In this document: one piece after another, positions 20,851-21,406 of the stretch | How positions within the stretch are numbered: position 1 is the stretch's first letter | How the letters are laid out: each line of letters starts with the position of its first letter | Assembly (NCBI GenBank): GCA_963720755.1 | Contig: CAVRGP010000011.1 | Span: forward strand, 480,001-544,000 | Length of the DNA: 64,000 nt | Source of the DNA: an uncultured Chloroflexia bacterium | GTDB lineage: Bacteria > Chloroflexota > Limnocylindria > Limnocylindrales > CSP1-4 | Direction of reading: 5' to 3' | Program-made: the position numbers and the translations under genes | The notes under the pieces: generated by a model | The model's input: the letters and a program-made list of their open reading frames with translations, nothing else | The model's database searches: none | Told to the model about the DNA's origin: nothing

Positions 20851-20965
20851 ATCGGTCAGTCATGTCACTCGAATGCTACCGCTCCGGCGCATATCGGACC
20901 GGGCACACAGCGGTCCGGGGCCAGGGCGGCGCGGCGTGCCCTGACCCGTCTGCTAGCATCGGTGC

Positions 20966-21406
20966 ATGAACTACGAGCTGTTCATGGACGAGGCACTCGA
21001 AGAGGCGAAACTCGCCCTCTCGGTCGGCGAGCGACCGATCGCCGCGGTGGCGGTCGTCGATGAGGCGATGGTCGTTCGAGCCCACGACCGGGTCCAGGAG
21101 ACCAACGACCCGACGGCCCATGCGGTCATCGTCGCCCTCCGCGAGACGGCTCGCAAGCTTGGCTCCGTCCGTCTCGCCGACGCGACGATCTTTGCGACGC
21201 AGGAACCGTGCTCGATGTGCGTCGGCGCCCTTCTCGAGAGCGATGTGGAAGCCCTCGTGTTCGCCCTGGCGGATCCTCTGGATGGCGCCGCCGGGTCGGT
21301 CATCCAGCTCGCCCAGCATCCGGATCTGCCTCGCCGAATCAAGGTCGTCAGCGGCATCCGCCAGGAGCAGGCGGAAGCGCTGTTCGCCGCTGTCGCCACC
21401 ACCTGA
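20966..21406 (+). CDS. tadA: TadA-family tRNA adenosine deaminase orthologue, predicted catalytically inactive (HAV)
   Basis: DPTAHAV and EPCSMC motifs; canonical tadA-tRNA-Ser-ffs-dnaX synteny; TGcTAGCAT extended -10 box 6 nt before the ATG. Confidence 0.85.
   Translation: MNYELFMDEALEEAKLALSVGERPIAAVAVVDEAMVVRAHDRVQETNDPTAHAVIVALRETARKLGSVRLADATIFATQEPCSMCVGALLESDVEALVFALADPLDGAAGSVIQLAQHPDLPRRIKVVSGIRQEQAEALFAAVATT

Follow-up and report, generated by a model that had tools for sequence, protein, structure and literature searches.

Bacterial TadA is a transfer RNA (tRNA) deaminase that converts A34 of tRNA-Arg(ACG) to inosine (I), and the glutamate of its HAE motif is the proton shuttle in all deaminases of the cytidine deaminase (CDA) fold. 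Here we describe an orthologue of tadA in which this glutamate is replaced by valine, giving HAV. It is encoded in a stretch of 64,000 nucleotides, hereafter the window (contig CAVRGP010000011.1, positions 480,001 to 544,000, assembly GCA_963720755.1), from an uncultured bacterium of the class Limnocylindria, phylum Chloroflexota. Across this class the HAV form and tRNA-Arg(ACG) are mutually exclusive at the level of families, and purifying selection has preserved the gene while the families diverged. We consider it likely that the window gene descends directly from tadA in a lineage without an A34 tRNA, and that its role is probably non-catalytic.

The same residue is missing in eukaryotic Tad3/ADAT3, which lacks the E of HxE and keeps the zinc ligands (Iyer et al., 2011, PMC3239186). 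Several bacteria are described as dispensing with wobble inosine. Mollicutes decode CGN codons without it, tRNA-Arg(GCG) replacing ACG, with mutations that weaken tadA proposed as the first step (Yokobori et al., 2013, PMC3711424). CGN decoding without inosine is also reported for the Candidate Phyla Radiation (CPR) and for "some deeply branching bacteria" (Shulgina and Eddy, 2021, PMC8629427), and Thermotogae and Spirochaetes are said to carry GCG instead of ACG (PMC8007984). For Diwan and Agashe (2018), TadA is a matter of presence or absence only. Our literature search found no paper on a conserved bacterial tadA orthologue lacking the catalytic Glu, although subscription journals or supplementary tables could hold one, and no paper on tRNA decoding in Limnocylindria. 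A study by Rafels-Ybern et al. from 2019 is cited by others for bacteria without inosine.

Gene, Family and Key Residues

The coding sequence and the codons on which the comparison turns are listed here. Coordinates throughout are window positions on the forward strand, and residues are numbered in the 146-amino-acid (aa) window protein.

20966..21406, forward strand: coding sequence of the TadA-derived 146-aa protein with HAV replacing HAE (ATG start; open reading frame list and profile matches)
21086..21088, forward strand: Asp41 codon GAC, where TadA has a conserved substrate-contacting Asn
21119..21127, forward strand: His52, a zinc ligand (CAT, 21119-21121), Ala53 (GCG, 21122-21124) and Val54 (GTC, 21125-21127), read from the sequence
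21203..21220, forward strand: E80-P81-C82-S83-M84-C85, the TadA-type EPCxMC zinc motif, kept; read from the sequence

Sequence, fold and synteny together make the window gene the positional orthologue of tadA, as had been proposed in an earlier reading of this DNA (the original prediction). Among NCBIfam models the TadA equivalog NF008113 fits best, with 113.4 bits against a cutoff of 150 bits. We label the window's own family f1; f2, whose genomes measure about 1.1 Mb, belongs to the same order, and f3, f4 and f5 are other families of the class. Because the HAE-type TadAs of f3 and f5 also score under the NF008113 cutoff (129-144 bits), that cutoff is a weak test for this class. Pfam matches were MafB19-deam (PF14437, 91.5 bits) and dCMP_cyt_deam_1 (PF00383, 75.1 bits). 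The best solved relatives are the TadAs of B. subtilis, S. aureus, E. coli (engineered and wild-type) and A. aeolicus (E 7e-27 to 2.5e-23), and solved ADAT3 chains match at E 1e-10.

HMMER alignment to the solved TadAs 7cph and 2b3j and to engineered E. coli TadA (8e2q) places Val54 on the catalytic Glu and Asp41 on the conserved Asn. The Val54 codon, GTC, is two changes away from GAA or GAG. The zinc ligands H52, C82 and C85 are retained, and the zinc-ligand and EPCxMC columns are invariant in our 81-row alignment (A1). D103-P104-L105 occupies the DxK position of TadA, and the protein stops at residue 146, so that the FFxxRR tail is absent. The original prediction had reported the same residues, codon distance and missing tail, together with a full-length open reading frame (ORF), and on direct reading its residue numbers and codon coordinates were all correct.

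Compared with a reference set of 66 HAE-type TadAs, the changes extend well beyond the catalytic position. The Glu column is Glu in 100% of the reference rows and Val in 98-100% of HAV rows. At column 41, 98% of the reference rows have Asn, and Asp stands in all f1 rows (100%) and in 75% of those of f4; Asn41 is kept in g3 genomes, and some f4 rows also deviate from Asp41. F143 and F144, present in 91-92% of HAE rows, are missing from the window protein. In all, the HAV clade is changed at the HAE-conserved columns V23, G33, N41, E54, Y76, R93, P104, K105, N122, H123, F143 and F144. The strand-2 Asn is listed as a TadA/Tad2 synapomorphy by Iyer et al. (2011, PMC3239186). A basic residue following strand 4 (DxK), together with conserved E and F in the C-terminal helix, is a further mark of TadA, and the window protein does not show this set. 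Several of the altered columns appear among the TadA synapomorphies of Iyer et al., and they are anticodon-loop contacts according to Yokobori et al. (2013, PMC3711424). The f1 and f4 proteins have derived features in common, namely the N-terminus MNYEL[FY]M, H-D at 40-41, HAV, GAAG and a short tail without FF..RR. Conserved and specific to the HAV proteins are the basic residues H40, R42, R63, K64 and R132.

Relatives in Genomes and Metagenomes

The valine is not a base-calling error, in agreement with the original prediction, which had argued this from the codon. Contigs of the soil DNA run X1, possibly the source sample, show 0 differences over 20851-21499; the DNA runs that hold the sequence (X1-X4) are soil metagenomes. 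A protein search of 24 congeneric species genomes gave matches in 21, and every tblastn alignment that spans the motif reads DPTAHAV (20 loci besides the window's own, 75-89% identical); one congener copy (G007) is frameshifted. Among 5.8 billion metagenome clusters searched, 2876 proteins match at E<=0.001, and the best 120 of these read DPTAHAV (118/120) or DPTAHAI (2/120). These relatives carry the Joint Genome Institute (JGI) label "tRNA(adenine34) deaminase." In an exhaustive HMMER search, Val was also found in more distant representatives that are 52-64% identical, and Glu-type ordinary TadAs begin at about 47% identity. Five f1 genomes without the strict DPTAHAV motif were checked, and three of them have orthologues with HPV or HAI, never Glu. 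Close relatives thus read Val or Ile at this site, and the Glu-to-Val replacement is fixed and old.

Outside the class, the DPTAHAV DNA pattern matched in 4 of 268 other genomes of the phylum; the two matches inspected were chance occurrences in non-deaminase frames. A second match in the window's own genome (C15:62697) lies inside a histidine-kinase ORF and was likewise rejected as chance. Distant metagenome representatives with HAV, HAA or HAP also exist (P0165, P0188, P0185 and P0244). One of them, P0165 (154 aa, 43% identical), has HAV and no strand-2 Asn, and joins the HAV clade weakly (support 92). It may stand for an additional lineage, or the catalytic Glu may have been lost there independently.

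Distribution of the HAV Form and of tRNA-Arg

The substrate side of the system is represented in the window by a different tRNA-Arg gene.

14124..14199, forward strand: tRNA-Arg(GCG), a G34 decoder in place of the TadA substrate tRNA-Arg(ACG) (tRNA scan)

Four DNA patterns were searched for in one and the same sample of 250 class genomes and in the window's own genome, with the following tallies by family.

DPTAHAV pattern: f1 62/73, f2 0/10, f3 2/82, f4 75/83, f5 0/2
DPTAHA[V or E] pattern: f1 63/73, f2 0/10, f3 57/82, f4 75/83, f5 2/2
tRNA-Arg(ACG) pattern: f1 0/73, f2 0/10, f3 55/82, f4 0/83, f5 2/2
tRNA-Arg(GCG) pattern: f1 67/73, f2 10/10, f3 7/82, f4 74/83, f5 0/2

These tallies include the unpublished genomes G296, G137, G215, G180, G174, G161, G307, G191, G222, G166 and G157, and no claim is made on them alone. 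When f1 and f4 are combined, the ACG pattern was found in 0/156 genomes and GCG in 141/156; f3 and f5 together have HAE in 59/84 and ACG in 57/84. HAV and tRNA-Arg(ACG) therefore exclude each other by family: the Glu families have an A34 tRNA, the Val families have a G34 tRNA and have lost the A34 tRNA, and the streamlined f2 has the G34 tRNA and no TadA. Family by family, HAV goes with the absence of ACG and the presence of GCG, CCG and UCG; the original prediction had put forward such an association, with GCG and UCG, for testing. In nine congeners the fetched CGN-box tRNA-Arg genes (20 loci) were GCG, CCG and UCG only, never ACG.

In f2 the slot between tRNA-Arg(GCG) and tRNA-Ser(CGA) contains no TadA-like remnant, and holds a dehydrogenase-like gene and a 148-aa ORF instead. 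A PF00383 search of 26 f2 genomes found one CDA-fold gene in 22 of them, which is a Cdd-type cytidine deaminase in the four loci that were read.

The window's own assembly (G000; 3.01 Mb, 15 contigs, 93.6% complete) has 52 tRNAs, among which there is no ACG and no UCG tRNA-Arg; those present are GCG, UCU and CCU, plus a garbled CCG gene on contig 8. In the garbled gene (C8:99837-99965) 57 nt from the 5' part run straight into another copy that carries small internal deletions, and ARAGORN calls a tRNA only with a 50-nt "intron." The arrangement is due either to faulty assembly or to a genuine partial duplication in tandem. In a crude set of ORFs from this genome, 12.5% of Arg codons are CGA, though tRNA-Arg(UCG) was not found, and a tRNA-SeC(TCA) gene is present.

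The origin of the G34 tRNA can be approached from its closest relatives. With the anticodon masked, tRNA-Arg(GCG) of f1, f2 and f4 is 86-90% identical to the CCG gene of its own clade and 68-79% identical to the ACG genes of f3 and f5 (L063-L067, L100-L103, L119-L127). It adjoins tRNA-Ser(GCT), and the ACG genes adjoin tRNA-Arg(UCG). An in-place A34G change of the ACG gene is unsupported by these identities and neighbours, 76 nt being too short to settle the matter, and the sequences suggest that the source of the G34 tRNA-Arg may have been a duplicated CCG gene and not the ACG gene. In the ARAGORN limits, the 3' CCA is encoded in tRNA-Arg genes of f1, f2 and f4 (L063-L067, L100-L103, L125-L127) and not in those of f3 and f5 (L119-L124).

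Phylogeny and Selection

Maximum-likelihood analysis of 100 proteins united all 32 rows of f1/f4 HAV type in one clade (SH-aLRT 99) on a stem of 0.97 substitutions per site, and f1 and f4 proteins are 51-58% identical. The ratio of nonsynonymous to synonymous substitution rates (dN/dS), taken as medians of pairwise Nei-Gojobori (NG86) estimates, was 0.14 within the genus (171 pairs), 0.21 within f4 (28 pairs) and 0.36 for the bona fide HAE TadA of f3 (21 pairs, one row being from the unpublished G180). These estimates are rough (dS about 0.8, a GC-rich genome, pairs that are not independent), but ratios of 0.14-0.21 nonetheless exclude neutral decay of the HAV gene, and they indicate purifying selection both in the genus and in f4.

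These results bear on the idea that the gene is a functionless relic nearing loss, its ORF surviving by chance or through an unrelated constraint, for instance a promoter that serves the tRNA-Ser genes behind it. The sister family f2 deleted the gene, two tRNA-Ser genes of the same strand come immediately after it, and the stem branch is long, all of which a relic could explain. It would not readily explain an ORF that is intact and full length in the 137/156 f1 and f4 genomes carrying the motif (the frameshifted copy of G007 being the one recorded case in a congener), dN/dS far below 1, clade-specific invariant residues, the conserved N-terminus MNYEL[FY]M, or f1 and f4 proteins that still agree at more than half of their positions. 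We regard a relic as very improbable.

Predicted Fold, Dimer and the Partner Question

AlphaFold2, run with the 81-row alignment, predicts that the window protein still adopts the TadA-like zinc-binding fold (pLDDT 96.5, pTM 0.92), and TadA structures are top-ranked against this prediction in Foldseek (TM 0.96-0.97, rmsd 0.8-1.2 Å). A homodimer was predicted with an ipSAE of 0.85, the best of three controls reaching 0.01; in calibration this mark was reached by 20/30 solved homo-pairs and 1/23 single chains. Runs agree in at least 98% of contacts, the partner pLDDT is at least 92, and the interface is formed by helices 2 and 3, as in TadA. Since TadA dimers have already been solved, the result may reflect likeness alone, but the model suggests that the window protein probably forms a homodimer.

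A confidently predicted fold would also suit an enzyme, and it is conceivable that the protein has been neo-functionalised as a zinc hydrolase or deaminase acting on a new substrate, with another residue, for example Asp41, or a group of the substrate as proton shuttle. The three zinc ligands and EPCxMC motif are invariant, the Asn41-to-Asp change adds a carboxylate in or near the base-binding pocket (100% of f1, 75% of f4), and purifying selection is equal to or stronger than that on the true TadA of f3. Against this, the Glu site tolerates Val, Ile and an Ala-to-Pro neighbour, as would fit a relaxed, non-catalytic hydrophobic site, and Asp41 is not universal, being Asn in g3 genomes and different in some f4 rows. 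Retained zinc ligands are in any case no guarantee of catalysis, since eukaryotic ADAT3 is inactive yet keeps them (PMC3239186). A continued enzymatic role is in our judgement unlikely. No deaminase of the CDA fold is known to us that dispenses with the HxE/CxE glutamate.

The original prediction had further suggested that the protein could be the inactive half of a heterodimer with an active HAE-type deaminase, converging on eukaryotic ADAT2/ADAT3. This part found no support in the genome search. The CDA-fold search of the window's own genome (93.6% complete) returned two PF00383 genes only, the window gene and a 378-aa RibD, and no HAE-type partner or paralogue, so the heterodimer is unsupported. 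What speaks for it is that the substitution is that of Tad3/ADAT3, in which the E of HxE is gone (PMC3239186), and that additional DPTAHAE proteins occur in some f1 and f4 genomes. These are a minority (about 12/73 f1 genomes among the matches listed), and of 13 such loci inspected, six are guanine-deaminase-like, three are of another nucleoside-deaminase type, two are TadA-like paralogues and two are chance matches. The two TadA-like cases (G219, locus L113, and G076, locus L114; both f1, one of them a congener) encode an extra, divergent 165-aa protein with an intact HAE that scores 66-70 bits to the TadA model. Four extra HAE proteins scored 66-86 bits on that model, HAV proteins 107-114 and f3/f5 TadAs 129-144. 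In addition there is no A34 tRNA for a heterodimer to edit (the ACG pattern being 0/156 in f1 and f4), the single 146-aa domain has no counterpart of the N-terminal domain of ADAT3, and the homodimer is itself predicted with high confidence. We give the heterodimer scarcely any weight.

Locus and Neighbouring Genes

The elements around the gene are as follows.

20951..20959, forward strand: extended -10-like element TGCTAGCAT, ending 6 nt before the ATG and conserved among orthologues
21418..21436, forward strand: GC hairpin resembling a terminator, its T tract weak, between the coding sequence and tRNA-Ser (consensus match only)
21455..21540, forward strand: tRNA-Ser(CGA), conserved downstream neighbour, placed likewise in 8/8 f4 loci and in the HAE locus of f5
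21695..21782, forward strand: tRNA-Ser(GGA), conserved downstream neighbour (tRNA and RNA scans; synteny)
22509..22772, forward strand: signal recognition particle (SRP) RNA gene ffs (172.8 bits), also found in 7/7 f4 loci scanned and the f5 locus
22734..25440, forward strand: dnaX, ybaB and recR (ORF list, synteny)

All eight f4 loci have the HAV gene followed by tRNA-Ser(CGA), tRNA-Ser(GGA), dnaX and ybaB (and recR), in the order of the window, and the HAE-type tadA of f5 (L105) occupies exactly the same slot. In f3 the tRNA-Ser pair is near the gene in only 1/7 loci that have it, indicating that f3 is rearranged. The B. subtilis order is yaaJ(tadA)-scr-dnaX-yaaK-recR (PMC10454642), which bears out, for that species, the earlier statement that tadA stands beside ffs, dnaX and recR in Bacillus.

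The upstream element, which the original prediction had described as an extended -10 box 6 nt before the ATG, is found as CTGCTAGCAT in identical form in 16/16 orthologues of the genus, 5-7 nt from the start codon (aligned upstream regions; window 20951-20965, loci L004-L020). Its counterpart in f4 is CTGCTAGACT, 6-60 nt from the start, in some cases with a GGAGG leader (L096-L103). A generic sigma-70 scan of 20800-21800 called no site, because the element has no -35 match. Its conservation suggests that the window gene has its own promoter, and as it ends about 6 nt ahead of the start codon, the mRNA would be leaderless or nearly so. The start of the protein is fixed by this promoter element and the conserved MNYEL[FY]M.

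Further downstream, the longest dnaX ORF (GTG at 22734; 22734-24422) shares 39 nt with the 3' end of the SRP RNA, so the real dnaX start is probably farther downstream. Elsewhere in the window, a 669-aa ORF (16736-18745) has internally repeated domains, Pro/Thr-rich linkers and a C-terminal hydrophobic stretch, and by its sequence looks like a surface-anchored repeat protein.

Proposed Course of Events

The original prediction held that this lineage has abandoned A34-to-I editing and keeps TadA as a zinc-binding pseudo-enzyme, and with ACG absent, Val fixed and selection purifying, this is the best reading of the data. A possible sequence of events begins in the common ancestor of f1 and f4, where CGN decoding would have switched to tRNA-Arg GCG, CCG and UCG; the order of the steps is conjectural. 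The catalytic glutamate of TadA would then have changed to valine, and most of the contacts to the anticodon loop of tRNA-Arg (Asn41, Arg93, Lys105, Asn122/His123 and the C-terminal FF tail) would have been replaced. Judging from these residues, the window protein probably no longer deaminates. It has most likely been kept for a non-catalytic role, in which a remodelled surface would probably bind some RNA or nucleotide. H40, R42, R63, K64 and R132 form a candidate surface of this kind, and their conservation as clade-specific basic residues makes an RNA or nucleotide ligand plausible; the new role itself is suggested by conservation. The model of Yokobori et al. in which weakening of tadA comes first would fit this class, by analogy, except that here the weakened gene was kept.

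In a more specific form, which we put forward tentatively and hold slightly short of even, the protein would be a stand-alone, homodimeric zinc pseudo-deaminase that was recruited, after loss of the substrate tRNA, to a new, selectable RNA- or nucleotide-binding role. Its ligands could possibly be the G34 tRNA-Arg or the co-located tRNA-Ser and SRP RNA transcripts, and it would have been kept for as long as the two families have existed.

A number of observations weigh against the pseudo-enzyme account and limit how far it can be taken. The tRNA set of the window's own assembly is incomplete (one CAT tRNA, no UCG and a garbled CCG), so that the absence of ACG there is weak by itself and the claim rests on the family tallies. 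In these tallies the strict motif is missing from 11/73 f1 and 8/83 f4 genomes, as is expected with strict patterns and incomplete metagenome-assembled genomes; still, two of the five f1 genomes checked for this reason yielded no match to the window protein query, and in two f3 genomes (G128, G291) the HAV motif occurs alongside HAE, through contamination or a real second copy. The relatives are kin and may descend from a single event, which reduces the co-variation to one or two evolutionary observations rather than 250. In the tree the HAV clade does not stand beside the f3 and f5 TadAs; deep branches are not settled, so vertical descent from the class's own tadA rests on synteny. The loss of the gene in f2 means that any role is not essential and is dispensable under streamlining. 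RNA contigs of runs X15 and X19 over 20851-21800 covered only the two tRNA-Ser genes and not the coding sequence. Finally, inactivity is read from one residue together with the lost contact residues, and the roughness of the dN/dS estimates has been mentioned above.

Comparison with Known Systems

If the account given here is right, the gene of an enzyme has outlived its substrate as a conserved, apparently catalytically disabled protein in widespread soil bacteria, a natural experiment in which an RNA-modifying enzyme of essential type turns into a pseudoenzyme. Inside one class there is a comparison set of active HAE (f3, f5), dead-but-kept HAV (f1, f4) and deleted (f2) states, which should be relevant to specialists in tRNA modification and in pseudoenzymes. 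There is a practical consequence as well, since the annotation "tRNA(adenine34) deaminase" of HAV proteins is probably wrong, and would mislead the inference of decoding rules from genomes.

With bacterial TadA (NF008113; PDB 2b3j, 1z3a, 7cph) the window protein shares its best sequence family, fold match and length class, the zinc ligands and EPCxMC motif, and a predicted TadA-like homodimer; the gene shares its chromosomal slot with the tadA of f5 and of B. subtilis. Unlike TadA, it has Val for the catalytic Glu and Asp for the strand-2 Asn, and it is without Arg93, the DxK lysine, Asn122/His123 and the C-terminal FF..RR tail. Its score of 113 bits is under the 150-bit cutoff, and the substrate tRNA-Arg(ACG) was not found in f1 and f4 (0/156).

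Eukaryotic Tad3/ADAT3 is likewise a TadA-derived domain in which the Glu of HxE is replaced (Val in ADAT3) and the zinc ligands are kept, so that the window protein offers a natural bacterial counterpart to the step that yielded ADAT3. It differs in that its genome (93.6% complete) encodes no catalytic HAE partner, in being a single 146-aa domain without the N-terminal tRNA-binding domain, and in its independent origin within a class of bacteria. The A34 tRNAs served by ADAT3 are an expanded set, whereas the window lineage has none. A stand-alone pseudo-deaminase, if confirmed, would be an independent, partner-less parallel to the origin of ADAT3.

As in Mollicutes and the CPR, tRNA-Arg(ACG) has been replaced by GCG plus UCG (and CCG) here, and A34-to-I editing has probably been lost. 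The outcome for the gene is different, as tadA is reported to have been lost outright in those groups, while in f1 and f4 it persists under purifying selection with its catalytic residue gone; among the families compared here only the streamlined f2 took the deletion path, like Mollicutes. Loss of wobble inosine in bacteria was thus already known, and the stand-alone, conserved pseudo-TadA is the part that is new.

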